From: an uncultured Chloroflexia bacterium
GTDB lineage: Bacteria > Chloroflexota > Limnocylindria > Limnocylindrales > CSP1-4
DNA: 64,000 nucleotides
Reading direction: 5' to 3'
NCBI GenBank assembly: GCA_963712745.1
Contig: CAVQJC010000001.1
Span: 256,001-320,000, forward strand
This document shows positions 6,700-63,977 of the stretch, piece by piece (positions within the stretch are counted from its first letter, which is position 1; every line of letters starts with the position of its first letter). The position numbers and the translations under genes are program-made. Below the pieces are notes generated by a model. The model saw only the letters and a program-made list of their open reading frames with translations, made no database searches and had not been told where the DNA came from.

Positions 6700-7467
6700 T
6701 CATCCGGGCGAGCGGCGGACCTCGTCCACGAACGAGAGCGACCGGGCCTCGCGCTCGAGGATGAATTGGGTGTAGCGGCGCATCACCGACTCCACCTCCG
6801 TTTCGACGGCCTGCGGCACCCGCAGGGCCGCCAGGGCCTCGACGTCGAAGCGCCGGTAGGCCCTGAGCAGCTTCAGCGCCGCCAGCGAGAGGCGCACCGA
6901 CTCGGCCGGCGGTGAGGGATGATCCGGGCACAGCACCCCGCCGAGCGCCGGCACCCAGCGGAACATGTCGGTCTCCTCGAGCACTCGGTGGCACTCCACG
7001 CAACGCTCGAGCTCTGGGCGTACGCCCAGAGCGTCGGCCAGTCCGGACTCGAACCAGCGCGCCACGCGCGCGGGGTCCATGCCGTCGTCGAGCAGCTGGC
7101 AGGCACGCCGCAATAGCCCGTAGACCGGGTGGGCACCGCCACGTTCCTCGACCGCCCGGTCGGCCAGCTCTCCGAGGTACCAGGCCACCGCGGTCGACTC
7201 CAGACGGTCGCGCAGGCGCAGCCAGGCGTGGGCCACGCTGACCTGCGTGATGACGTCGAGGTTGCGACCCCGGGCCAGCGCCACCTCCAGTTCGGCGAAC
7301 GGCTCCACGCTCCCGCCGATGCGACTCCTGGGCCGGCGGACGCCCTTGGCCACGGCGCGGATCTTGCCGTCCTCGGGCGTGAGCAGCGTGATGATGCGAT
7401 CGGCCTCGCCCAGGTCGAAGTGAGCGAGGACGATGGCACGCGTCTTGTAGGTCCGGGGTCGGGGCAC
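6700..7467 (-). CDS. recO: DNA repair protein RecO
   Basis: AIVL...[23 protein letters not shown], CxxC zinc region; GTG 7467. Confidence 0.92.
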
Positions 7468-7549
7468 GCCGCCGAGCGTATCTCGTGACGGGCTCCGCTG
7501 TCGCCTTATCGTCATCGGACAATGTGCTACAAGCGAGTATCATTTCCCG

Positions 7550-8572
7550 GTGCTCGCATCCATCGACCTCGACCGACTGATCGCCGACACCGAGCAGGAG
7601 ATGCTCGGTGTGATCGAGCGCGCGGAGGACGAGCGCACGCGAGAGTTGTACGCGATGGTCCGATACCACATGGGCCTCGACAGCGACGCGCCGCGTGGCA
7701 AGCGCATGCGCCCGCTCATCGGCCTGCTGGCCTACCAGTCCATCGCCGGGGACCATGCCAAGGCCCTGCCAGGAGCGGCGGCGGTGGAGATGGGCCACAA
7801 CTTCAGCCTGGTCCACGACGACATCGAGGACAACGGCGCCGAACGCCGTCATCGGCCTGCGCTTTGGACCGTGTGGGGTGTGCCCCAGGCCATCAACACC
7901 GGCGACACCCTCTTCACGCTTAGCCGCCTGGCCCTCTACCGCCTGCAGGAGGAGGGCTTCGACGACGCCCGCGTCCTGCGCCTCATGCGCCTGTACGACG
8001 AGACCTGCCTGGCGCTTTGTGAGGGGCAGTTCATGGACATCTGGATGTCCGAGCACGACGAGTGGATCTCGGTCGACTACTACTTCGACATGATCGGCCG
8101 CAAGACCGCCTCACTCATCGCCGGTTCGGCCGAGGCAGGTGCGGTGCTGGCTACCGACGACGAGGCGACCATCGGCGCGTATCGGCGTTTCGGCTGGGCA
8201 CTGGGGCTGGCCTTCCAGCTCAACGACGACTTGCTGGGCATCTGGGGCGACAAGGCCACGACCGGCAAGGAGACGTCGGACGTCGCCACCCGCAAGAAGA
8301 CGCTGCCCCTGATCTACGCCCTGGCCGAAGCCACCGGCCGCGATGGCGAGCGGCTGAGGTCGGTGCTGGCCCAGTCGGAGGCTGAGCCGTCTGCAGCCGA
8401 GGTCGACGAGGTGCTGGGCATCCTCGGGCGCGTCGGGGCGGAGGAATACACTCGCGCACGCGCCCGCAGCCACCGTGACCAGGCCCTCGCCGAACTGGCC
8501 TCGGTGGGCCTGGTGGACGCGGCCTCGATGGAGCGTCTCAGCGAGGTCGTCCGCGCCGCCATCAGCGCCTAG
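7550..8572 (+). CDS. polyprenyl diphosphate synthase (type I GGPP synthase-like)
   Basis: [18 protein letters not shown] (Phe at -5 of the first DDxxD), [17 protein letters not shown]. Confidence 0.9.
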
Positions 8573-12901: not shown

Positions 12902-13776
12902 GCTGCCATCGGCAGAGGCGTCAGCGCCGCACGCAACGCCAGCCACTCCTCGACCGAGAGGGTCTGGGGCCGTCGGTCGGGAGCGATGGAGCAGGCAGCC
13001 AGGGCCGCGTCGACCCGCTCGCGGTCCAGGCCCGGCAGCTGGCGAGCAAGCACGTTGTGGATCATCTTGCGTCGCTCGCGGAACCCGGCCTGCACCAGGC
13101 GCCACAGCTCGTCTTCGTCCTCGGGGCCCAGGCGCCGCTCGCGCGTCACGCCGATGAGGATGGCCGAGTCGACCTCGGGCGCGGGCTCGAAGGCCGCCGC
13201 CGAGACCGTGAAGGCCACCTCCACAGGCGCGTGGTACTGGACAAACACCGAGAGGTAGCTCATGCCGCCCGGCGGCGAGGCGATGCGCTCGGCGACCTCC
13301 TTCTGGACCATCATCACGAAGCGGGTCGGGCGCGGCTCCCCTCCGAGCACGTGGTGGAGGATGGGGCTGGTGATGTGGTAGGGCACATTGGCCACCAGCG
13401 CCCAGGGCTCGGTGGCCAGGTCCGCCACGGCCACGTCGAGGAAGTCATCCTCCACCAGCGTCAGGTCGGGATGGTCGGCGAACCGCTGGCGCAGATGTCC
13501 CGCCAGCCGGAAGTCCAGCTCGACCGCCGTCACGGCTGCTCCGGCGGCCAGCAGCTGGGCGGTGAGGATGCCCACACCTGGCCCGACTTCCACGATGCGC
13601 TCGCCGGGCTGCACATCGGCGAGCTCGATGATGCGTTCCAGCACTGCGCCGTCGGCGAGGTGGTTCTGCGACAGCGACTTGCGCGCGACCAGGCGGTGCT
13701 GGCGCAGGTAGCGCTCGACCGCCTCGGGGCCGAGTCGCGCGGGATCGAGCTCCCACCCGTCCGCCGACATCGTCAC
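12898..13776 (-). CDS. rsmA: 16S rRNA m6,2A dimethyltransferase
   Basis: KSLSQNHL, EVGPGVG, ANVPYHITSP, MVQKEVAERI. Confidence 0.94.
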   Translation of the reverse strand: MTMSADGWELDPARLGPEAVERYLRQHRLVARKSLSQNHLADGAVLERIIELADVQPGERIVEVGPGVGILTAQLLAAGAAVTAVELDFRLAGHLRQRFADHPDLTLVEDDFLDVAVADLATEPWALVANVPYHITSPILHHVLGGEPRPTRFVMMVQKEVAERIASPPGGMSYLSVFVQYHAPVEVAFTVSAAAFEPAPEVDSAILIGVTRERRLGPEDEDELWRLVQAGFRERRKMIHNVLARQLPGLDRERVDAALAACSIAPDRRPQTLSVEEWLALRAALTPLPMAA

Positions 13777-14840
13777 ACGGCCAGCTTGAGGGATGGGCGC
13801 GCATCGAGCGAGCGGTCGGCGCGGGTGCCGGCGAGGTGGCGATGGTAGCCGGCGGCTCCGATCATGGCGGCGTTGTCAGTGCACAGGCCGGGCCGCGGCA
13901 CGATGAGCGGCAGCCCCAGGCCCCCGGCACCCTCGGCGATACGTTCCCGCAGCACCGCGTTGGCGGCGACACCGCCGCCCAGCAGGATGGACCTCGCACC
14001 CAGCTCGCGCGCAGCTCGCAGCAGCTTGGTCGATAGCACCTCCACGACCAATTCCTGGAAGGCCCACGACAGCTCCGCCACGTCTTGCGCCGACAGGCCC
14101 GAGCCGTCGAGGTCACGAGCCTGGGGCGGCAGGCCCAGGGCCTCACCGACCGCATGCCGGGCCGCGGTCTTGAGCCCGGAGAACGAGAAGTCGTAGGACT
14201 CGCCCATCCAGGCGCGGGGGAAGCGACGGTCGTGGGCAGTGGCACCGGCAGCTGCCTTCATGATGGCCGGGCCGCCCGGATACGAGAGTCCCAGCAGCCG
14301 GCCGACCTTGTCGAATGCCTCGCCGGCCGCGTCGTCGACGGTCTGACCGAGCAGCCGGTAGCGCAGGTGGTCCTGCATCTCCACGATGAAGGTGTGGCCA
14401 CCGCTCACCACGAGCGCGACCAGCGGGAACTCCGGCGCCGGTCGCTCCACTTCGTCGGGGTCGAGCAGCCAGGCGGCGTAGATGTGGCCCTCCAGATGGT
14501 TCACCGGCACCAGCGGCAGGCCCAGGCTCCAGGCCAGGGTCTTGGCCATGGTGATGCCCACCAGCAGCGACCCGGCCAGGCCGGGTCCTTCGGTCACGGC
14601 CACGGCCTCGACCTCGCTCCAGTCTTCGAGGCCGGCCCGGGCACGGGCTTCGTCGAGCACGGGGATCATCCAGCGCAAGTGGGCACGCGCAGCCACCTCG
14701 GGCACGATCCCGCCCGTCTCCGAATGCAGCTGCACCTGGCTGGCGACGACGTTGGCCACGATGCGGCGGCCCCGCTCGACGACCGCGACCGCTGTCTCAT
14801 CGCAGGATGATTCGACCGCGAGGATGCGTCCACGGCTCAT
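13773..14840 (-). CDS. tsaD: tRNA N6-adenosine threonylcarbamoyltransferase
   Basis: ESSCDET, GGIVPEVAARAH, HLEGH, VSGGHT, DDAAGEAFDK, CTDNAAMI. Confidence 0.96.
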   Translation of the reverse strand: MSRGRILAVESSCDETAVAVVERGRRIVANVVASQVQLHSETGGIVPEVAARAHLRWMIPVLDEARARAGLEDWSEVEAVAVTEGPGLAGSLLVGITMAKTLAWSLGLPLVPVNHLEGHIYAAWLLDPDEVERPAPEFPLVALVVSGGHTFIVEMQDHLRYRLLGQTVDDAAGEAFDKVGRLLGLSYPGGPAIMKAAAGATAHDRRFPRAWMGESYDFSFSGLKTAARHAVGEALGLPPQARDLDGSGLSAQDVAELSWAFQELVVEVLSTKLLRAARELGARSILLGGGVAANAVLRERIAEGAGGLGLPLIVPRPGLCTDNAAMIGAAGYHRHLAGTRADRSLDARPSLKLAV

Positions 14841-15421
14841 GCGTCGAGCACCTCCGGGGGAGCATCAGGATCGGCCGCGAAGCCCGGGTCGTCGGGCAGC
14901 ACCGCGATGGCGTACTGCTCGGTCTTCCTCGCCAGCAGACGCCCCATCTCGGGCGTCGCCAGCCGGTCGGTGGTCATGATGAGCGCGTCTTCGCCGTTGT
15001 CCGAGTAGTAACGCGGTCGCAGACCCACGGGCTTGAAGCCGAACTCCTGGTACAGCCTGCGGGCGGCGCCGTTACCGAGGCGCACCTCCAGCGTGCACAC
15101 CGCCGCGCCGACCTCAGCGGAGAGGGCCATCAGCTGCGCGAGCAGCAGGCCGCCGATGCCGCGGCGGCGGTAGGCGGGCAGCACCGCGAACGTGGTCACA
15201 TGTGCCTCGTCGACCATCAGCCAGATGCCGGCGTAGGCCACGACTCGCTGGCCGGCCCGGACCACCAGGTAGCGCGCCATCCGATTGGACTCGATCTCCT
15301 CGCGGAACGCGTAGGGCGGCCACGGCGTGGGGAACGAAGCGCTCTCGATGGCGTGGACGGCGGGGATGTCGTTGGCGGTCATGGGCTCGACCGCCAGCCT
15401 CACCGGAGGTCGGGCGACCAT
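14837..15421 (-). CDS. rimI: ribosomal protein alanine N-acetyltransferase
   Basis: IESASFPTPW, RRRGIG, LEVR, YYSDNGEDALIM. Confidence 0.9.
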   Translation of the reverse strand: MVARPPVRLAVEPMTANDIPAVHAIESASFPTPWPPYAFREEIESNRMARYLVVRAGQRVVAYAGIWLMVDEAHVTTFAVLPAYRRRGIGGLLLAQLMALSAEVGAAVCTLEVRLGNGAARRLYQEFGFKPVGLRPRYYSDNGEDALIMTTDRLATPEMGRLLARKTEQYAIAVLPDDPGFAADPDAPPEVLDA

Positions 15422-16065
15422 CCCAGGTCCTCCGCGGCACGCTGCACGCCACGCGGCAGCGCGACGTAGGCCGGGGTCAGCCCAGCCACGTCGTCAGTCG
15501 CTCCGGCACTGAGGCGTTCGTGCGCCATCTCCAGCAGCGCCGTAGCCAGGCCCGCGACCGCGGCCGTGCCCAGCCGGGCCGCCTCCTCGCCGAGCACCTC
15601 GTCACCCAGGTCGACGGCCAGGGCGGTCGCACTGCCGATGGCCAGCGCCAGATCCCCGGGCGCGATGAGCACGGGATCGGCACCACGCCGGGCAAGGTAG
15701 TGGTCACGGGCACCCGCCGGCAACACGACCGCAGCATCGGGGGCCCCGCTGGCCCGGCGCAGGGCGTCGGATGACATCACGCCCACGAGCGGGAGTCGTC
15801 GGGCGTAGGCGATGGTCTTGACCGTGGCCAGGCCCACGCGCAGGCCGGTGAAGGACCCAGGGCCCGTCCCGACCGCCAGCGCGGTGACGTCATCGAGCGT
15901 GCTGCCGGCTGCGGCAAGGACCTCGTCGATCTGCTCGAGGACGTGGGCGCCGTGCCGATGCCGTACCTGCCTGGTACTGACCGCCACGGGCGCATCGCGG
16001 CCGATCGCGACCACGCTCGAGCGGGTAGAGGTGTCGACGGCGAGGACGAGGCCAGCCGCGCTCAT
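15400..16065 (-). CDS. tsaB: t6A biosynthesis protein TsaB
   Basis: LAVDTST, GPGSFTGLRVG. Confidence 0.92.
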   Translation of the reverse strand: MSAAGLVLAVDTSTRSSVVAIGRDAPVAVSTRQVRHRHGAHVLEQIDEVLAAAGSTLDDVTALAVGTGPGSFTGLRVGLATVKTIAYARRLPLVGVMSSDALRRASGAPDAAVVLPAGARDHYLARRGADPVLIAPGDLALAIGSATALAVDLGDEVLGEEAARLGTAAVAGLATALLEMAHERLSAGATDDVAGLTPAYVALPRGVQRAAEDLGWSPDLR

Positions 16066-16568
16066 GCCGAGCCCTGCCAGCGACGAGCGGCCTCCACGTA
16101 GCGACGGGCAGCCTGGCCGTGACCACTGATGTCGATGACGCGCGAGGACTCAGCCACCGGCTCGATGGCCACCGTCAGCCGCTCCGGGTCAAGGTCCGCA
16201 TCGAGGCGGTCGGCCCACTCGCTGAGCGTGACACCATCGTCCTGCCGCTCGTCGAGGAGCCCTCCCGCGAGCACGTCGCTGGCACCGGCCAGGCGGTAGA
16301 GATCCTGGTGGAAGAGCGTCAGCCGGCCCTGATACTCGGCCATGAGCGTGAAGCTTGGGCTATTGACGACATCGTCGATGCCCAGGCCGGCCGCGAAACC
16401 CTTGGCGAACTGCGTCTTGCCGGCGCCGAGCGGCCCTACCAGTGCGAGCCGGTCGCCCGCCTGCGCCGCCGGCGCGAGGGCCGCGGCGAAGTCCCGCGTC
16501 TCGGCGGTGGACGACGTGCGCACGCGCACCGAGACGGGGGCGGCTCGTTCGAGATCGGACATGGTCAT
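16062..16568 (-). CDS. tsaE: t6A biosynthesis ATPase TsaE
   Basis: GPLGAGKT, VNSPSFTL, HQDLYRL, EWAD. Confidence 0.93.
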   Translation of the reverse strand: MTMSDLERAAPVSVRVRTSSTAETRDFAAALAPAAQAGDRLALVGPLGAGKTQFAKGFAAGLGIDDVVNSPSFTLMAEYQGRLTLFHQDLYRLAGASDVLAGGLLDERQDDGVTLSEWADRLDADLDPERLTVAIEPVAESSRVIDISGHGQAARRYVEAARRWQGSA

Positions 16569-16577
16569 CGCGGCAGG

Positions 16578-17681
16578 TTAGCCGAGTCGCTCCAGGATGG
16601 TGAGCGGCACGCAGTGGCGTTCCAGCGAGCCATCGGCCGCTGGCAGCTCCACGAAACCGCCCGGGACGTAGCTCCCGCCTGGCCAGCGACGCGGGCCCGA
16701 CAGGCCCACCAGGCGCCCCTCGTGGTCGCGATGCTCGCCGGCCACGGCGCGCACCGTGCCCGGTGGACGGGACATGGCCTCGACCAGCGGTGCGGGGTCG
16801 CCCTCGATGACGAGCGTGCGCGAGTCGGGCAGGACCCCGGCGGTGCGGCCCTGGGCCGCCACCAGCAGGTCCCACAGGTAGCCCGGGATGGGCGAGCGAC
16901 CGAAGCCTCCGAGCGCCACCAGGCCGAAGGGGGCAGCCGCATGCAGTGCAGCCTGCTGGCGAGCCTCCGAGGAGGTCAGCTGGCGCAGGTCGCGACTGGC
17001 CACGCCCCCGGCGACGACCGCGGCCACACCCAGGGCACGAGCGCGCGACAGTGCCTCGATGTCGATCCGGGCACCGACCACCAGAACGGCGCCCGAGACA
17101 CCGACATCGATGCGGGAGGTCTGCACCTCCGCATCGCGGACATCGACGGCGAGGACGATGCGGCCCGAGGACGCACGGCCCCAGCCGAAGCGAGTGTCGA
17201 CGGCCAGACCGTCCGCTCGCAGGTCGATCCGTGACGGCGTCACGGTCTCGATGACACCGGCCACCGGGGCCGTCACCAGGATGTCGCTGCGACCGGCCAC
17301 AAGGCGCGTGACGCCGTCACGTCCGTGCTCACAGACACGCGTGCGGAGCGTTTCGGACGACGACTTCCGGCCCAGCCGACCGGAATGCTCGAGCGGCACG
17401 TCGTCGAGCACCGAACCGGGCGGCAGGCCGATGACCCGCGCGCTGCTGGGGATCTCGACGGCCTCCTGTTCGCGGAAGTGCTCGACGATGGGCTGGCCCG
17501 GCTCCACTCGCTGACCCGGCGCCACCAGCGGTCGGTCGGCCAGGTGGATGGCGATGCGCAGCAGGCGGCCGACCTCGGGACGCGCCGCAGGCACCACGAA
17601 ACGAGCGGGGTCGGGCCCGGCGAAGCGCGCGGGGTCGGGCCCGGTCGTCGCCTCGTCGGCGGCTGGGCGTCGGTCGTCCAT
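16578..17681 (-). CDS. uncharacterised protein with barrel-sandwich-hybrid-like motifs, a central alpha/beta domain and a KOW/SH3-like C-terminus
   Basis: LVAPGQRVEPGQPI and VTAPVAGVIETV half-motifs, GAVLVVGARIDIEALSRARALGVAAVVAGGV; ATG overlaps the upstream stop (TGATG). Confidence 0.65.
   Translation of the reverse strand: MDDRRPAADEATTGPDPARFAGPDPARFVVPAARPEVGRLLRIAIHLADRPLVAPGQRVEPGQPIVEHFREQEAVEIPSSARVIGLPPGSVLDDVPLEHSGRLGRKSSSETLRTRVCEHGRDGVTRLVAGRSDILVTAPVAGVIETVTPSRIDLRADGLAVDTRFGWGRASSGRIVLAVDVRDAEVQTSRIDVGVSGAVLVVGARIDIEALSRARALGVAAVVAGGVASRDLRQLTSSEARQQAALHAAAPFGLVALGGFGRSPIPGYLWDLLVAAQGRTAGVLPDSRTLVIEGDPAPLVEAMSRPPGTVRAVAGEHRDHEGRLVGLSGPRRWPGGSYVPGGFVELPAADGSLERHCVPLTILERLG
17597..17644. 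repeat. 24-bp near-perfect tandem duplication (GPDPARF x2) in the N-terminus of the hypothetical protein
   Basis: cgaaacgagcggggtcgggcccgg / cgaagcgcgcggggtcgggcccgg. Confidence 0.8.
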
Positions 17682-19300
17682 CAGTCCGCCCCCATCCAGA
17701 CGGGGGCCTCCCAGGCCTCGAGCGTGGCCCGCCGGCTCTCGCCCCCGGGAGGCAAGTCGAGCGGTATGGGCCGCGTGTCCACGAACAGACCGGCCAGTCC
17801 GCCGCTGACCTCCAGGGGGATCGTGCGACCCTCCACACCAAGCACGGCGCCGTCACCGGGGTCGATGCCCAGGCGGGCCACGATGCCGGGTGGCAGATCC
17901 ACCAGCTGCAGGACGCCAGGCTCGAGGCGCAGTCGCTGATCGCCGAGCGAGCTGGCGATGCTCATGGTGGCGCCGGCCTTGTCCTTCTTGCGGGTCGCGA
18001 TGGAGCCCGTGAGCACGGCGCTGCAAAGGGGCAGCAGGCAGTCACCCATGAGGTCGGCCAGCAGTCGCTGGCGATCGGCCTCCACCGGCAGGGCTCCGAG
18101 GGGCGCCAGCACGCCCGCGTGGTCGTAGAGGATGCTCATCGCGCCCGGACTGCGGATACCGTCGACCGCCGCCATCGCGGAGGCTGCTGGGGGCAGGCCG
18201 GCGAAGGCCCCGCCGCCCAGGACCATGACGCTCGAGCCGCGCCGCTCGCCGCTCGCTGCTGCACCCTGCTCCCAGGCAGCCGCGAGGCGTTCGAGCGCGG
18301 CCCGCAGGGCTGCCAGCTGGAGGTGCAGGCCGTCGCGGCCGGTCCCGGCCCAGGGCTGGAGCACAAGGTCGCGTAGCGCGTCGAGACGGGCGGCCGGGTC
18401 GCCGTCCAGCGTGGACCAGCGCAGCACGGCCTCGCCGGTGCCATCGGCGTCGAGCAGGGTCGGGGGCAGCATGCCGGCCTCGGCGAGGACCGCGTGGCCC
18501 AGCTCCCCCTCCGGCCCCGCCTGCGTGCGCGCGCCGGCGGCGGCGCCGATCTCGATGCCGTCGACGTGACTTCCCAGCACCGCCGCCAGCGAGACGACAG
18601 CGGCCCTCAGGGCGGCGCGGCCGTCGGTGGGCACCGGTTGGCCGCCAGCGGCAAGATGCCGGCCCACCTGCGAAGCCGCTCCGCGCAGGAGCGAGTCAGC
18701 GGTGAGCGGGACAGGGTCAGGGGCAGGCAGGGAGAAGAGCCGCCCGTCGGGCAGGCCTTCGGGTCGGTCGGCGAAGGGCCCGCAGGCGATGACCGCGAGA
18801 TCGTCACGGAAGCGGGCCAGCGAGGCGGCCCGGGGCCACAGCCGATGCGCCGCCGCACGTTCCTCCTCGTCGACGCCATCGCGACCGCCCATGACCACCG
18901 CGTCCACGTCGAGATCGAGACAAGCCTCGCCGAACGCCACAAGGTCGGGGTCGGGCCCGAAGAAGCGATGTCGAACGGTCCAGCCGGCGCCGGTGAAGGC
19001 ACGCTCGAGGAGGTCTCCCGTCTCGGCCGAAGCGGCCACCAGCACGGCCCTGGACGGGCGTCCGGTACGGACCTCAAGGCGGGACCAGTCGCGCCAGCCT
19101 TCCATGGAGCCGGCCAGCGAGGCGTCCGTACGCGCGACACGCCAGGCCAGGTCCTCGAGCACCGACTCGGGATCGAGGACCACCGGCGCGGCCGCGGCCG
19201 CGAGCATGCGATAACGGCCCTCGACGGGGGCGATGAGCGTGGCCTTGATGGCGACCGTACCGCGGTCGAGCGTGAAGAAGGCAGCAGAGTCCTGGGTCAC
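17681..19300 (-). CDS. GlmL/MutL-like (glutamate mutase L family, actin/ASKHA fold) protein, divergent
   Basis: TLDRGTVAIKATLIAPVEGRYRMLA, DAVVMGGRDG, GIEIGAA, VLGGGAF, C-terminal GGLAGLFVDTRPIPLDLP..R..L..W resemble long-form GlmL-like motifs as recalled; no HMM run. Confidence 0.6.
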   Translation of the reverse strand: MTQDSAAFFTLDRGTVAIKATLIAPVEGRYRMLAAAAAPVVLDPESVLEDLAWRVARTDASLAGSMEGWRDWSRLEVRTGRPSRAVLVAASAETGDLLERAFTGAGWTVRHRFFGPDPDLVAFGEACLDLDVDAVVMGGRDGVDEEERAAAHRLWPRAASLARFRDDLAVIACGPFADRPEGLPDGRLFSLPAPDPVPLTADSLLRGAASQVGRHLAAGGQPVPTDGRAALRAAVVSLAAVLGSHVDGIEIGAAAGARTQAGPEGELGHAVLAEAGMLPPTLLDADGTGEAVLRWSTLDGDPAARLDALRDLVLQPWAGTGRDGLHLQLAALRAALERLAAAWEQGAAASGERRGSSVMVLGGGAFAGLPPAASAMAAVDGIRSPGAMSILYDHAGVLAPLGALPVEADRQRLLADLMGDCLLPLCSAVLTGSIATRKKDKAGATMSIASSLGDQRLRLEPGVLQLVDLPPGIVARLGIDPGDGAVLGVEGRTIPLEVSGGLAGLFVDTRPIPLDLPPGGESRRATLEAWEAPVWMGAD

Positions 19301-19307
19301 ACGACAG

Positions 19308-19313
19308 ATGGTA
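19308..19313 (-). promoter_or_regulatory. -10 element of a probable leaderless transcript of the GlmL-like gene
   Basis: TACCAT 7 nt before GTG 19300, no SD. Confidence 0.5.
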
Positions 19314-19399
19314 GCCGCGCCGGGCTATTCAGGCGCCAGGAGCCGGTCGGGCGGGGCAAGTGTGGGTCGTCCCTGGCGGCCGGCCGCCGCGGCCACGCC

Positions 19400-19717
19400 T
19401 CAGGCGAAGAGGTCGGCTTCGGCGTCCAGCTCTTCAAGGCGGTCGATGAGGCGTTCGATGCCGTCGTCATCGGCCAGCAGGTTGCGGGCGCCGGGATCAT
19501 CGCCACCGAAGATGCCCCTGATAACCGGGTCGAAGAAGAGCATGCCCAATCCATCGAGCGAGCCGGCACCGCGATTGGCCTCCAGGAACAGCACGGCCGG
19601 GACGGTCGCACCGCGCATCTGGATCTGCCGCGCCACCGACTCGACGTCATCTCCTTCGAAGATGCCGAAATCGGCTGACTCGCTGAGCGGCTCGGTCACT
19701 GCCGGCGGTCGTAGCAA
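19400..19717 (-). CDS. small acidic helical hypothetical protein
   Basis: VARQIQMRGATVPAVLFLEAN...FFDPVIRGIF...IERLIDRLEEL; AGGAGG upstream of TTG 19717 (alternative GTG 19699). Confidence 0.65.
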   Translation of the reverse strand: MLRPPAVTEPLSESADFGIFEGDDVESVARQIQMRGATVPAVLFLEANRGAGSLDGLGMLFFDPVIRGIFGGDDPGARNLLADDDGIERLIDRLEELDAEADLFA

Positions 19718-19809
19718 AACCGTTTCGTCCTCCTAGAGACATGCAGAACCGGCACGGCTGCGGGGTCGGGTCCCTCTCTACCCAGTCCTCGCGACCGGTT
19801 TCGTCACGT

Positions 19810-20979
19810 CTACTTCGGTGCCGGCGTGCGTTCTTCGCGATCAGCAGTACCAGCCAACGGATGGTACACCCGGGCCAGCCTTTGAGCCATCGTTGTCAGC
19901 ACTTCCCACGCGATCGTGTTGCGCCGACGCGCCAGTTCCCCGGCCGAGATCGCCTGTCCGCCCTGGCTGCCCAGAAGGACGAACTCCTCGTCGTATCCGA
20001 GCCCGGGCAGATCGGTCACATCGGCCGTGACCGAGTCCATCGAGACACGGCCCACGAGCGGCACGCGGCGGCCGCGCACGAGGGCCTCCGCGCCCGGCTG
20101 CGCGCTGCGCAGGTAGCCATCGCCGTAGCCGACGGGCAGGACGGCGATGCGCGACGGTCGCTGGGCTCGCCAGGTGCCGCCGTAGCCGACGGAGCCGCCC
20201 ACGGGCACGTGGCTGAAGGCGACAGCGTGGGCCTTGACCGACATCGCCGGCCGCAGCCGAGCCGCGGCATCCAGCGCATCACGGGCGATGGGTAGGCCCT
20301 CATCGAGGACGCCGTGGATAGCGATGCCGGGCCGAACCAGGTCGAGCGCGGGCTCGTCGCCCGCGAAGATGCCGCCGGAGGCTGCGATGTGGCGCGGCGG
20401 AACGGGGATCCGCGCTTCGCGCAGGGCGGTCGTGGCGACCTCGAAACGGAGCAGTTGGGCATCCGACGTCGGCGGGTCCTCGGGGCTGTGCAGGTGGGAC
20501 CACAGGCCGGCCAGCTCGATACCCGGATGGGCCTGGACCTGGGCCGCGACCGCGGCGACCTCCTCGGTGGGCAGGCCACCGCGACCCATGCCGGTCTCGA
20601 CCGCGATGTGCACTCGGACGGGCGGGCCGTGGGGCCGAACCGCGTCACCGATGGCACGCAGGTCGGACGCGGACATGACCGGCAGCTCGAGGCCGTGTGC
20701 GAGGGCCTCGGGCACCGCCGAGTGGGGCACCGGGTAGAGCAGCAGGATGCGCGTGTCGACCTCCGGCCGGAGCGCGATGGCCTCGTCGAGGGTGGCCACG
20801 CAGAGCGCGTCGGCGAGCGGCGAGATGGCCCGGCCGACGGCCAGCATGCCGTGGCCGTAGCCATCGGCCTTGACCACCGGCGCCACCGCGGCCGAGCCCA
20901 CCACCGAGCGGATGACACCGATGTTGTGACCGATGGCCTCGAGGTCGATCTCGACCCAGGCACCGCGGCGGTCGATCAT
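19810..20979 (-). CDS. alr: alanine racemase
   Basis: VVKADGYGHG (PLP Lys), ETGMGRGG, VGYGG, GYGDG, GRVSMD. Confidence 0.95.
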   Translation of the reverse strand: MIDRRGAWVEIDLEAIGHNIGVIRSVVGSAAVAPVVKADGYGHGMLAVGRAISPLADALCVATLDEAIALRPEVDTRILLLYPVPHSAVPEALAHGLELPVMSASDLRAIGDAVRPHGPPVRVHIAVETGMGRGGLPTEEVAAVAAQVQAHPGIELAGLWSHLHSPEDPPTSDAQLLRFEVATTALREARIPVPPRHIAASGGIFAGDEPALDLVRPGIAIHGVLDEGLPIARDALDAAARLRPAMSVKAHAVAFSHVPVGGSVGYGGTWRAQRPSRIAVLPVGYGDGYLRSAQPGAEALVRGRRVPLVGRVSMDSVTADVTDLPGLGYDEEFVLLGSQGGQAISAGELARRRNTIAWEVLTTMAQRLARVYHPLAGTADREERTPAPK

Positions 20980-21917
20980 GACCCGCCCGCGGCCGGAGCC
21001 TCGAAGCCGAGGCGGCCGCGGGTCTCTCGCTCACGCACGGCCGCCAGGTGGCGCCGCACGCGAGGGATGGCCGGCAACAGGTCGGTGGCCATCAGGCCCG
21101 CGTCGCCGAGGCGGCTGCTGACGTCCTCGCCGGCACGGGCGTGGAGGAAGACGCCGAGGGCTGCCGCGTCGAAGGGGCCCAGGCCCTGGCCCAGCAGCGA
21201 GGCGATGACGCCGGCGAGCACGTCGCCGGTGCCGCCCGAGCCGAGAGCAGGTACTTCGAACGGCGCCGTGAGCGACCGGCCGTCGGGCTCGGCGATGACG
21301 GTATGGGCGCCCTTGAGCACCACCACCACTCCCCACTCGCGAGCCGCGCCCAGGGCAGCCTCGCGCCGGCTGGCGCCGTCCCCGGCACCGCCGTCGCGGC
21401 CCAGCCGCGCGAACTCGCCCGGGTGTGGCGTCAAGACCAGTGCCCGGCGCACCCGGGTCCACCAGCGCGGCAGGCCGGAGAGAGCATCCAGGGCACCCGC
21501 GTCGACGACGGCGGGCGCACCCTCGGCGGCGAGCAGGGCGCGGACCAGCCGGCTCGTGGCCCGCCCGGGCATCAGTCCAGGGCCGACCAGCAGTGCGTCA
21601 CAGGGCATGGCGCCGAGATCGGCAGCGGCCTCGTCGGCCGCGACCTGGTAGGGGGTCACCTCGGGCAGGCCGCGGGTGATCAGCTCTGGCACACGCCCGG
21701 CGATGGCCGGCTGCAGCGAGGCCGGTACGCACACGGTCACCAGGCCGCTGCCGGCGCGGAGCGCCGCGGCACCGGACATGAGCGCGGCACCGGCATAGTC
21801 GAGCGATCCGGCCACAGCCAGGACCCGTCCGAACGTGCCCTTGTGGCCAAGCGGATCGCGCTCGGGCAGCAGTCGGGCAGCAGTCGCCTCGTCGAGCAGC
21901 ACCTCACCCGCGACCAT
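20976..21917 (-). CDS. nnrD: ADP-dependent NAD(P)H-hydrate dehydratase (stand-alone, no epimerase domain)
   Basis: HKGTFG, GAAALRAGSGLV, GPGL, LTPHPGEF, LKGA, GGTGDVLAG. Confidence 0.9.
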   Translation of the reverse strand: MVAGEVLLDEATAARLLPERDPLGHKGTFGRVLAVAGSLDYAGAALMSGAAALRAGSGLVTVCVPASLQPAIAGRVPELITRGLPEVTPYQVAADEAAADLGAMPCDALLVGPGLMPGRATSRLVRALLAAEGAPAVVDAGALDALSGLPRWWTRVRRALVLTPHPGEFARLGRDGGAGDGASRREAALGAAREWGVVVVLKGAHTVIAEPDGRSLTAPFEVPALGSGGTGDVLAGVIASLLGQGLGPFDAAALGVFLHARAGEDVSSRLGDAGLMATDLLPAIPRVRRHLAAVRERETRGRLGFEAPAAGGS

Positions 21918-22493
21918 CAACCCGCCCCGGTTTTCCCGTTGCGCACGGCCTCCGTCTCCGGGTCGTGCCCGGGCTCAGCCTCGGCGGCACGCACCTCCGC
22001 GTCGAGGTCGCGCAGCCGGCGCATGCGCGCCATCAGCTGCCGCTCACGGTCGTCCATGCGCGCTTCCATGTCGATGGGGAGGACGAACTCGCCGCCCTCG
22101 GTGCGCACGCCGAAGGCCACGGCCACGGCGTATTCGCGCTCATGGCTGATGGACACCGCGATCCGCTCCATGCCCAGCTGGTTGGCCCGGCGGAGGGCGC
22201 GATCATGGAGCCGGCACATGGGCGCGCCGGTGGGCAGCCGGATCGATCTCGATCTCGCGCCAGCCGACCCCGCGCACGCCCAGCCCGAGCACCTTCGAGA
22301 CCGCCTCCTTGGCCGCCCAGCGGCCAGCGAAGTTCTCGGGACGATCGCGTACGTAGGCGTCCTCGTGGTCGGTCAGGACGCGCCCGGCGAAGCGCCGGCC
22401 ATGCTTCTCGATGGCACGGCGGATGCGGTCGACCTTGATGATGTCGATCCCTACCTCGGTCGTGCCCGGCGGCGGCGTCGGCAGGGCGGTCAC
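21917..22493 (-). pseudogene. acpS: holo-ACP synthase split by a +1 frameshift near 22244 (probable sequencing error)
   Basis: VGIDII..RI, FAGRWAAKEAVSKVLG, WREIE in one frame and RLPTGAP..VSISHEREYAVA in another; removing one base from gatcgatc restores the frame. Confidence 0.85.
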
Positions 22494-24319
22494 TCGACCG
22501 TCACCGACTTGGCCAGGTTGCGCGGCTGGTCGACGTCGGTGCCGCGCTCCACCGCGGTGTGATAGGCGAAGAGCTGCAGCGGGATGACCGCCAGCACCGG
22601 GCTCAGCATCTCGACGGTGGGGGGCACCCACATGATGTCGTCAGCCACGGCCTTCATGCGGTCATCACCCTCGGTCACGACGGCGATGACGTGGGCATCC
22701 CGGGCGCGACCCTCCATCAGGTTGCTGACGAGCTTGTCGTGCACCGCGGTGCGAGTGGCCACCGCCACCAGCGGCACCTCCGCGTCGAGCAGCGAGATGG
22801 GCCCGTGCTTCAGCTCCCCCGCCGCGTAGCCCTCGGCGTGCACGTAGCTGACCTCCTTGAGCTTGAGTGCACCTTCGAGGGCGGCCGGGTAGGTGATGCC
22901 GCGGCCGACGTACATGTAGCCACGAGAACCCACGTAGCGGCGGGCCAGCTCGGCCGCCGAGGCCTCGTTGAGTTCGAGGGTGCGCTCGGCATTGGCCGGC
23001 AGGGCTCGTAGCCCCTCCACCAGGGCCTTCTCATAGAGGGGATCGAGGCGGCCGCGTATCTTGGCCATCTGGGCCGCCACGAGCAGCAGCGTCAGCACCT
23101 GCGTCACGTAGGTCTTGGTGGCCACGACGGCGATCTCCGGCCCGGCCTGCAGGAAGAGCACCGCGTCGGCCTCGCGCGTGATGGCCGAGCCGACCGTGTT
23201 GGTCACCGCTACCACCGGGCAGCCCCGCTCCCGGGCGAGGCGGGTAGGGGCCAGCGTGTCGGCCGTCTCGCCCGACTGCGTGACCGCGATGACCAGCGTC
23301 TTCTGGTCCAGCGGAGGCGGATCGTAGCGGAACTCGGAACCCACGTTCCAGCGGGCTGGCAGCCCGGTCCATGCCTGCAGCGCAGTGGCCGCCACGGCCG
23401 CGGCATAGGCCGCGCTGCCGCAGGCGACGAGCTCGACGCGCTCGATGTAGGGCAGGATCGCCCGCAGCGGCTCGAGCTCCGGCACCCGCACCTCGTCCTG
23501 GTGGATGCGCCCGGCGATGGCGGCCCGGATGGCCTCCGGCTGCTCGTGCATCTCCTTGAGCATGTAGTGCTCGTAGCCACCCTTCTCGGCAGCCTCGATG
23601 TCCCAATCGATCTGGTGCACGGGCCGTACCTGGGGGCGGCCGACGATGTCGGTGATGGACACCCGGCCGGGACGGATGTCGGCCACGTCGCCCTCCTCCA
23701 GGAAGATGACGTCGCGCGTGTAGGCCAGCACCGCAGCCACATCGGAGGCCAGGAAGGCCTCTTCCTCGCCCAGACCGACGATGAGCGGCACGTTCATCTT
23801 GGCCCCCAGCACGCGGTCGGGCTCACCCTTGTGGATGACCGCCAGGGCGTAGGCGCCGTGGGCCCGCTGGAGGGCCTCGCGGACGGCAGCCGCGAGGTCA
23901 CCGTGGTAGGCCTCTTCGACGAGGTGGGCGATGGCCTCGGTGTCGGTCTCGCTGTCGAAGACGTGACCTGCCGCCTCCAGCTCCGCCCGCAGCTCGATGA
24001 AGTTCTCGATGATGCCGTTGTGGATGACCGTCAGCTCGCCGGTGCAGTCGACGTGGGGATGGGCGTTGAGATCATTGGGCCGTCCGTGAGTGGCCCAGCG
24101 TGTGTGACCCAGTCCCGCCGTCGAGGCCGGGGTACCTTCGGCCAGGGCCTTCTGCAATCCGGCGATCTTGCCGGCTCGCTTGCGCACGAAGAGGTCGCCC
24201 GCCTCGGTGACAAGGGCGATGCCGGCCGAGTCGTAGCCGCGATACTCGAGCCGGGCCAGGCCCTCGATCAGCACTGGTGCCGCCTGACGATGGCCGACGT
24301 AGCCGACGATCCCGCACAT
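22490..24319 (-). CDS. glmS: glutamine--fructose-6-phosphate aminotransferase
   Basis: MCGIVG, LEYRGYDSAG, HTRWATHG, QSGETAD, PRNLAKSVTVE. Confidence 0.97.
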   Translation of the reverse strand: MCGIVGYVGHRQAAPVLIEGLARLEYRGYDSAGIALVTEAGDLFVRKRAGKIAGLQKALAEGTPASTAGLGHTRWATHGRPNDLNAHPHVDCTGELTVIHNGIIENFIELRAELEAAGHVFDSETDTEAIAHLVEEAYHGDLAAAVREALQRAHGAYALAVIHKGEPDRVLGAKMNVPLIVGLGEEEAFLASDVAAVLAYTRDVIFLEEGDVADIRPGRVSITDIVGRPQVRPVHQIDWDIEAAEKGGYEHYMLKEMHEQPEAIRAAIAGRIHQDEVRVPELEPLRAILPYIERVELVACGSAAYAAAVAATALQAWTGLPARWNVGSEFRYDPPPLDQKTLVIAVTQSGETADTLAPTRLARERGCPVVAVTNTVGSAITREADAVLFLQAGPEIAVVATKTYVTQVLTLLLVAAQMAKIRGRLDPLYEKALVEGLRALPANAERTLELNEASAAELARRYVGSRGYMYVGRGITYPAALEGALKLKEVSYVHAEGYAAGELKHGPISLLDAEVPLVAVATRTAVHDKLVSNLMEGRARDAHVIAVVTEGDDRMKAVADDIMWVPPTVEMLSPVLAVIPLQLFAYHTAVERGTDVDQPRNLAKSVTVE

Positions 24320-46180: not shown

Positions 46181-47378
<1,198 letters not shown>

Positions 47379-62780: not shown

Positions 62781-63977
<1,197 letters not shown>

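Follow-up and report, generated by a model that had tools for sequence, protein, structure and literature searches.

What do three "hypothetical" genes do in the middle of a bacterial housekeeping operon? The question arises from a 64,000-nt stretch of DNA from an uncultured Chloroflexia bacterium (NCBI GenBank assembly GCA_963712745.1, contig CAVQJC010000001.1, positions 256,001 to 320,000; hereafter the window), in which three open reading frames (ORFs) on the minus strand, for proteins of 105, 539 and 367 aa, separate alr from tsaE. The ORF list places the 105-aa ORF (TTG start) at 19400–19717, the 539-aa ORF (GTG start) at 17681–19300 and the 367-aa ORF (ATG start) at 16578–17681. Together with the Pfam families of the flanking genes, these coordinates bear out an initial annotation, made from the sequence alone, that had described three co-oriented genes at this place. 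In other phyla alr and tsaE are known to be contiguous, and it is against that arrangement that the trio counts as an interruption. Our analysis reveals a GlmL-derived branch of the ASKHA proteins in a new genetic setting, accompanied by two novel companions, and the three genes occupy the same site between alr and the tRNA-modification genes throughout one uncultured Chloroflexota group.

The 539-aa protein is a remote relative of MutL/GlmL

A word-indexed homologue search with the 539-aa protein found 141 proteins with E ≤ 0.001 among 8000 scored candidates. The 120 homologues listed are 50–100 % identical to it and have 0 precomputed Pfam domains; the names given are all "hypothetical protein", and those named by organism come mostly from metagenome-assembled genomes (MAGs) of Chloroflexota or Limnocylindrales. 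We aligned 38 homologues (alignment A1, mean column identity 67 %) and used the profile to search 1.84 billion representatives in full with HMMER, which returned 799 matches with E ≤ 0.001, 337 with E ≤ 1e-10 and 79 with E ≤ 1e-30. A Pfam scan covered 29 of the 150 profile matches listed. Among these 29, the closest 10 full-length proteins are without a Pfam family, two intermediates match PF13941 (MutL) slightly under the cut-off, and 12 proteins, all distant (562–606 aa, profile E 1e-17 to 1e-22), match PF13941 above the cut-off. We refer to these 12 proteins (alignment A4, ~580 aa) as the bridging clade; their PF13941 matches have E values of 1e-24 to 1e-75 and cover near the whole model in 11 of the 12.

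The bridging clade connects the 539-aa family to PF13941. An hhalign comparison of A1 with A4 gave a probability of 99.9 % and an E value of 1.6e-31 over 510 aligned columns, extending from the N-terminal DxG[ST] motif to the final helix and across the whole PF13941 region. In addition, PF13941 is matched weakly (best E 3e-5) by 4/34 members of the wider 539-aa family, and it occurs in 28 %, 16 % and 100 % of the members of the Chloroflexota clusters that neighbour the 539-aa protein in the ESM Atlas. All 12 bridging-clade proteins also match the NCBIfam models for GlmL (NF040745) and the ornithine-pathway protein Or-4 (NF040744) and the TIGR01319 model. Beyond the end of PF13941, both clades continue for ~110 further residues, forming a C-terminal beta domain with the motif GGxxGxxxDxRxxPLxLP that MutL/GlmL lacks.

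By these sequence comparisons, the 539-aa protein is a remote relative of MutL/GlmL and not GlmL proper, because no GlmL model cut-off is reached. The bridging clade is likewise not true GlmL, and the alignments place the 539-aa protein two homology steps from it. The protein falls short of the curated PF13941 cut-off and has no direct match to the MutL/GlmL models; it is homologous over its full length to PF13941 members. The name "GlmL-like" in the initial annotation therefore stands for the ASKHA fold of the model described below and the remote PF13941 homology found by hhalign, and falls as an assignment to GlmL itself.

A tblastn search of plasmids with one bridging-clade protein gave no match. 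Three long matches, P0310, P0335 and P0357, were considered as natural fusions and rejected, as inspection by eye indicated gene calls running through wrong frames; P0357 holds 539-like, then 367-like, then TsaE segments. Two relatives of the 539-aa protein, P0259 (652 aa) and P0262 (701 aa), carry a low-complexity insertion of 100–160 residues, rich in Ala, Pro, Asp and Glu, after the Rossmann-like inserted domain; the 539-aa protein of the window is without it.

The predicted structure has an ASKHA fold

The AlphaFold (AF2) model of the 539-aa protein, computed from A1, is a confident one, with a predicted local distance difference test score (pLDDT) of 89.7 and a predicted template-modelling score (pTM) of 0.90. 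A Foldseek search of the PDB with this model gave 267 matches with E ≤ 0.001 among 500 counted. The best match is PilM (1.1e-8), followed by type III pantothenate kinase, N-methylhydantoinase, acetate kinase, the ASKHA subunits of acetophenone and acetone carboxylases, and FtsA; xylulo- and glycerol kinases and Hsp70 come further down, and nearly all of the 49 rows inspected are ASKHA-type. The TM-scores on the query are low (0.21–0.30). The matches thus indicate that the modelled protein adopts an ASKHA fold, with two RNase-H-like lobes around a nucleotide cleft, but has no close solved relative.

We counted motif residues in 63 distinct members of the window's clade, aligned with the 12 PF13941-clade proteins. 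The phosphate-1 consensus, Asp-x-Gly-Thr/Ser, is kept in the 539-aa protein: D12 is Asp in 62/63 members of the window's clade and in 10 of the 12 PF13941-clade proteins (Glu in the other 2), and G14 is conserved in 61/63 and 12/12. At phosphate-2, residue 250 is acidic in 58/63 (44 Glu, 14 Asp) and Asp in 12/12, and G252 is conserved in 62/63 and 12/12. The segment that follows this glycine is mostly Ala-Ala-Ala-Gly-Ser-Arg in the window's clade (Arg in 56/63) and, two residues further, mostly Thr-Thr in the PF13941 clade (6 and 8 of 12). The adenosine Gly-Gly pair (G363, G364) is present in 61/63 and 58/63, with the first glycine in 12/12 and the second in 5/12 of the PF13941 clade. Residues G386, D393, G500, G501, G504, D508 and R510 are conserved in 63/63 and 12/12, and the C-terminal GGxxGxxxDxR motif is invariant and common to both clades. 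The phosphate-1, adenosine and GGxD-type motifs of MutL/GlmL are recognisable in the 539-aa protein, and these residue counts suggest that the nucleotide-binding scaffold is mostly retained with a changed catalytic loop. Nucleotide binding is plausible.

The trio keeps one genomic context

We collected related loci in one scan of species-representative genomes with A1 and the patterns EDLAWR[VA][AL]R and DHA[RGA][VI]L[AG]PLG, which could reach the near clade only and not the PF13941-bearing bridging clade. The scan yielded 66 related loci, with 31–74 % identity to the 539-aa protein. Twelve are labelled Candidatus Limnocylindrales and 1 Candidatus Dormiibacterota, and the others Chloroflexia, Chloroflexi, Chloroflexota or Anaerolineae; NCBI taxonomy places Limnocylindrales within class Candidatus Limnocylindria of Chloroflexota. 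We searched the 66 loci by tblastn with 15 window proteins. The detected genes are colinear on a single strand in 66/66 loci, and the trio is present in every relative fetched. A 105-aa homologue occupies the same position in 64/64 loci with at least 450 nt upstream, and a 367-aa homologue is found in 62/62 loci with room, the 4 loci without it having at most 208 nt downstream. Likewise, tsaE is present in 59/59 loci with enough downstream sequence (in the other 7, the downstream sequence is no longer than 1151 nt) and alr in 62/66, with 3 of the other 4 lacking room. The 539/367 pairing, for which the initial annotation had looked to relatives, is thus conserved in this group.

The fourth locus without alr, L023, has no alr between nnrD and the 105-aa gene (~7378–7667) despite 8 kb of upstream sequence. 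Its upstream genes are displaced by ~1 kb, and all other block genes are present, the trio included. In nine loci (L011, L012, L022, L030, L032, L060, L063, L064 and L066) the tblastn matches of many block genes are fragmented, and the broken ORFs suggest assembly indels, not pseudogenes; these loci were kept in the presence counts.

In the window, Pfam identifies cdaA, ybbR/cdaR, glmM, glmS, nnrD (Carb_kinase) and alr upstream of the trio and tsaE, tsaB, rimI, tsaD, rsmA and ispE downstream. The genes tsaE, tsaB, rimI and tsaD follow 3′ of the pair in the same orientation (13773–16568, minus strand; Pfam and ORF coordinates). The G+C content near the site is 68–76 % and that of the trio 0.73–0.75, the same as its flanks. 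PADLOC models gave 0 matches for the three proteins. The lack of a compositional break and of a defence-family match is consistent with vertical inheritance of the trio in this Chloroflexota lineage. With 0 PADLOC matches, a flank-like G+C content and a context fixed in 66/66 loci, the trio does not have the profile of an anti-phage defence system. As the initial annotation had stated, B12 genes are missing from the window: Pfam detects no B12-binding or mutase family among its 67 distinct ORFs, and Rfam, which returned one tRNA only, detects no cobalamin riboswitch. Unlike MutL/GlmL genes, the 539-aa gene does not stand beside mutase subunits in the window, and it has two conserved companion genes of no known family.

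Two companions of no described family

No Pfam family matches the 367-aa protein above the cut-off. A match to Pfam NIT (E 0.0014, 19.5 bits vs cut-off 24.9; 6/19 members) was rejected as a chance helix match. The homologue search with this protein returned 180 proteins with E ≤ 0.001, all "hypothetical", and in two MAGs the 539- and 367-aa homologues carry adjacent locus tags (AB1Z67_12375/12380 and ACC726_11595/11590). The AF2 model (pLDDT 81.7, pTM 0.75) is composed of a beta-rich N-terminal part, a beta-alpha-beta domain at ~199–305 and a small C-terminal beta domain. Foldseek gave one match with E ≤ 0.001, to Thermotoga maritima NusG (6.6e-5), which we take to contain a barrel-hybrid insertion and a KOW domain. 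Weaker matches are to AF_0055, MccF/LdcA and RraA for the central domain (target TM 0.23–0.56) and to KOW domains and eS4 for the C-terminus. We aligned 19 homologues (alignment A5, identity down to 30 %); the profile search with A5 returned the same clade only, and against the PDB the profile matched the sandwich-barrel insertion of the RNA polymerase beta′ subunit at E 0.11 and uL24 at E 0.76. The Atlas neighbours include, as a lead only, a Bacillota cluster (score 0.93), 25 % of whose members have RnfC_N and 19 % Biotin_lipoyl. Our reading of the model is a sandwich-barrel-hybrid (SBHM) domain, an alpha/beta domain and a KOW/SH3-like domain, in a protein that lies outside every described family.

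The 367-aa gene of the window contains a 24-nt tandem duplication at 17597–17644 (2.0 copies, 91 % match), which yields GPDPARFA/GPDPARFV in the protein. The duplicated segment sits in the low-confidence N-terminal tail of the model, and the PDPxRF segment is single-copy in aligned relatives.

The 105-aa protein is small and acidic, with a conserved core in about the last 78 residues, and 18 columns are invariant in an alignment of 18 members of its family (A6). Pfam and NCBIfam have no match for it. Its profile matched designed repeat proteins only in the PDB, which were rejected as low-complexity helix matches. The 105-aa protein is thus a new family without a known domain. An AGGAGG stands 11 nt 5′ of the TTG. 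The 105-type ORF of distant relatives encodes 94–97 aa, so the real start of the window gene may lie downstream of the TTG.

A conserved hexamer suggests leaderless expression of the pair

The stop codon of the 539-aa gene and the start codon of the 367-aa gene overlap in a TGATG at 17679–17683 on the minus strand (GGACTGATGGAC), in which TGA and ATG share one base at 17681; this is the overlap that had been read as translational coupling. We examined the junction in the 55 loci where coverage extends to the C-terminus of the 539-aa homologue. A 4-nt NTGA overlap with a start codon in the partner frame is present in 50/55 loci and TGATG in 1/55, giving a stop/start overlap in 51/55, which upholds that reading. 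In the other 4 loci the nearest in-frame start is 19–44 nt away, and 2 of the 4 still have ATGA.

Upstream of the pair, the −10-like hexamer TACCAT (19308–19313, minus strand) is separated by 7 nt (ctgtcgt) from the GTG at 19300, a candidate leaderless promoter already noted in the initial annotation and supported here by sequence and conservation. In 47 loci with a clear 539-aa gene start, the start codon is GTG in 47/47, and TAnnnT precedes it in 47/47, at 6 nt in 28 loci, 7 nt in 18 and 8 nt in 1. The hexamer is TACCAT in near relatives and TAGGAT, TAGCAT or TACGAT in distant ones, and its intergenic flanks are unalignable between the two groups. The hexamer is not a chance occurrence, because its position is kept in 47/47 relatives. 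No Shine-Dalgarno-like (SD-like) motif lies within 40 nt of the GTG in the window, where most other genes have one. Counted on both strands, the window holds 100 TAnnnT and 7 TAnnnT-N6-7-ATG/GTG, and the arrangement with N6-7 precedes 3/64 listed gene starts, those of the polyprenyl synthase gene, tsaE and the 539-aa gene. A scan for a two-hexamer sigma-70 consensus and a terminator scan both found nothing in 13500–22600.

Leaderless units with a TAnnnT −10 element a few nucleotides before the start codon are known from Actinobacteria and Deinococcus. The 539-aa gene resembles them in its spacing of 6–8 nt, its GTG and its lack of an SD motif, and differs in that the arrangement is rare in the window and is known here from sequence alone. 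The simplest reading of these features is a leaderless transcript that would run from the GTG of the 539-aa gene through the 367-aa gene into tsaE-tsaB-rimI-tsaD. The gap between the 367-aa gene and tsaE is 9 nt, and the later junctions through tsaD are overlaps of 4, 22 and 4 nt. A tsaE-proximal TAnnnT is found in 16/49 loci, and in several others the end of the 367-aa gene runs into tsaE. The window's clade may also possess an optional internal start ahead of tsaE. In the window, TAACCT lies 6 nt before the tsaE start without a close SD (16569–16577), its TAA being the stop codon of the 367-aa gene, and TATCAT lies 6 nt before the polyprenyl synthase gene at 7550, again without a close SD (7529–7549).

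Because of the promoter position and the gene overlaps, we tie the pair to tsaE-tsaB-rimI-tsaD rather than to alr, glmS and glmM. The initial annotation had proposed a link to cell-envelope precursor metabolism; it finds no specific support, as the pair's promoter is located downstream of the glm genes and alr, and the trio persists in L023 in the absence of alr.

Other genes of the window

The remaining genes comprise, on one side, those for ribosomal proteins, secY, adk, rpoA, rpoB, rpoC, fusA, tuf, nusG and secE, and on the other side, those for RidA, glmU, a CNNM/CorC transporter, the polyprenyl synthase and recO. Between glmS and nnrD, acpS (holo-ACP synthase; 21917–22640, minus strand) is split across two frames. 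The break is near 22203–22230, where "…WREIEI" ends the part in frame 22203–22640 and "IRLPTGAP…" begins the remainder in frame 21917–22372. A single intact ORF of ~185–200 aa is present in 7/7 relatives inspected (L001, L002, L004, L010, L014, L025 and L042). The split is probably a one-base assembly error, not a pseudogene, because acpS is normally essential. Two EF-Tu-type ORFs are present, one of full length at the window end (62781–63977, 398 aa) and one after fusA (46548–47378, 276 aa) that comprises the GTP-binding domain alone and may be truncated by a frameshift, as acpS is.

Discussion

We tentatively propose that the 539- and 367-aa proteins form a nucleotide-dependent, chaperone-like complex with a housekeeping client. 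The two proteins would be made in fixed proportion from a leaderless mRNA continuing into tsaE-tsaB-rimI-tsaD and would assemble into a heteromer, for which the indications are purely genetic (co-occurrence in 62/62 loci, stop/start overlap in 51/55). The ASKHA subunit would bind and hydrolyse nucleotide, and closure of its domains would shift the alpha/beta and beta-barrel domains of the partner against the client, as proposed for the GlmL, EutA and DdrAB reactivases. The client would be a housekeeping enzyme and not an adjacent B12 mutase, and the 105-aa protein, always adjacent but encoded upstream of the promoter, may be a third component or a regulator. In the passages drawn on here, PMC4682846 presents MutL/GlmL as a chaperone that reactivates glutamate mutase, and PMC5597319 counts as families of the actin superfamily those of glutamate mutase, diol dehydratase reactivase and EutA. 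The pair shares with the DdrAB/GdrAB reactivases and EutA the concept of a co-expressed ASKHA ATPase and smaller alpha/beta partner (PMC4682846 and PMC5597319, same passages). Unlike in those systems, the partner here would combine SBHM, alpha/beta and KOW-like domains, and likeness to DdrA/DdrB is absent among the Foldseek rows inspected for the 539- and 367-aa models.

Several observations weigh against such a complex. At E values up to 10, the 539-aa protein matches 0 families in Pfam and NCBIfam and 0 PDB sequences, and its family profile matches PDB sequences at chance level only (E at least 0.078). The best bridging-clade scores are 108 bits vs a cut-off of 475 for GlmL, 94 vs 600 for Or-4 and 90 vs 204 for TIGR01319. 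No diol or glycerol dehydratase reactivase is among the 49 Foldseek rows inspected for the 539-aa model, and the fold matches of the partner are weak, with one alone at E ≤ 0.001 and TM-scores of at most 0.23 on the query. The phosphate-2 Thr-Thr of the PF13941 clade is lost in the window's clade, which has Gly/Ala-Ser-Arg in its place, and this replacement makes ATP hydrolysis uncertain. That the genes from the 539-aa gene through the 367-aa gene and tsaE-tsaB-rimI to tsaD probably form one transcription unit is deduced from spacing alone. Finally, the predicted complex has no named candidate for its client, and the reactivase role of GlmL is itself given by analogy in the part of PMC4682846 drawn on here (Fig. 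4 legend, with a diol dehydratase citation).

A broader proposal, which we consider rather unlikely, is that the trio is a B12-independent ASKHA machine, in which a GlmL-derived nucleotide switch, an SBHM/KOW partner and a small acidic protein would have been taken on as additional, lineage-specific subunits or assembly factors of the universal N6-threonylcarbamoyladenosine (t6A) tRNA-modification system (TsaBDE) or of another core process, encoded by leaderless first cistrons. The narrower claim that the pair is an accessory of the t6A machinery (TsaB-TsaD-TsaE) has in our view a low probability. In that case, which might involve tRNA delivery or complex remodelling, RNA would be held by the KOW-like domain, with the ASKHA subunit docking onto TsaB/TsaD, which are themselves ASKHA proteins. 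The position of the pair directly 5′ of tsaE in every locus with enough downstream sequence, the gap of 9 nt in the window or overlap in several relatives, the KOW-like C-terminal domain of the partner, and a conserved promoter that in most lineages stands before the pair and not before tsaE all point this way. Co-transcription is weak evidence, however, because rimI, of unrelated function, shares the operon; the KOW similarity is marginal (E 0.1–0.9), and Pfam and NCBIfam reveal no similarity to a known t6A component. To our knowledge, t6A synthesis in other bacterial lineages proceeds without proteins of this type. Similarly improbable is an ordinary B12-enzyme reactivase with its client mutase encoded elsewhere in the genome, a role suggested by the only named relatives, GlmL and the GlmL-related Or-4, both of which are tied to B12-dependent mutases (NCBIfam models; PMC4682846). 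This role fits poorly with a window devoid of mutase genes and cobalamin riboswitches, with the identical housekeeping neighbourhood in 66/66 loci and with the distance from true GlmL. The kinship to Or-4 is likewise one of superfamily (bridging-clade E down to 6.8e-27), and the context differs, being housekeeping with no ornithine fermentation cluster. Moreover, we know of no GlmL system that includes 367-type or 105-type proteins.

The remaining alternatives start from the fold. An ATP-dependent enzyme of the hydantoinase/oxoprolinase type, with an ASKHA kinase-like part and a catalytic or substrate-binding partner, would have a small-molecule substrate, perhaps connected with the nearby D-alanine and amino-sugar genes (glmS, glmM, glmU and alr are each <10 kb from the trio). 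In Pfam, MutL is noted for its similarity to the hydantoinase branch, the Foldseek matches of the 539-aa model include N-methylhydantoinase and the beta subunits of acetophenone and acetone carboxylases (E 6e-7 to 1.4e-5), and Hydantoinase_A is carried by 12 % of the members of one neighbouring Atlas cluster. We nonetheless judge this enzyme improbable: the 539-aa protein has no Pfam Hydantoinase_A match, the 367-aa partner does not resemble HyuB-type subunits, the pair has its own promoter downstream of the cell-wall genes, and L023 retains the trio although alr is absent from its usual place. Finally, we regard as very improbable an actin-like protein that, in the way of PilM or FtsA, would form filaments or a membrane scaffold and work with an adaptor. 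Among solved structures PilM and FtsA score best (E 1e-8 to 2e-6), but the search results contain no GlmL structure from the PDB, so these two may merely be the nearest solved ASKHA folds. Their TM-scores on the query are low (0.22–0.30), sequence homology indicates the GlmL/hydantoinase branch, and the window Pfam matches place no pilus or division genes nearby.

A limited literature search (PF13941; Limnocylindria with glutamate mutase; GlmL/MutL/reactivase) gave no description of such a module, and the papers found on GlmL, MutL and reactivases are general B12 papers only. GlmL-type proteins have so far been known as little-studied helpers encoded beside B12-dependent mutases. Here, a whole GlmL-type branch is found elsewhere, with an extra C-terminal domain and two companions of no described family, in a module that is a constant part of a core housekeeping operon in an abundant uncultured lineage of soil and freshwater. 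For the study of leaderless expression in Chloroflexota, the conserved TAnnnT-N6-8-GTG arrangement offers a clean candidate. If the pair is a nucleotide-driven remodelling complex with a non-B12 client, this ASKHA branch would have a wider role, and three gene families that are currently "hypothetical" would gain a function.

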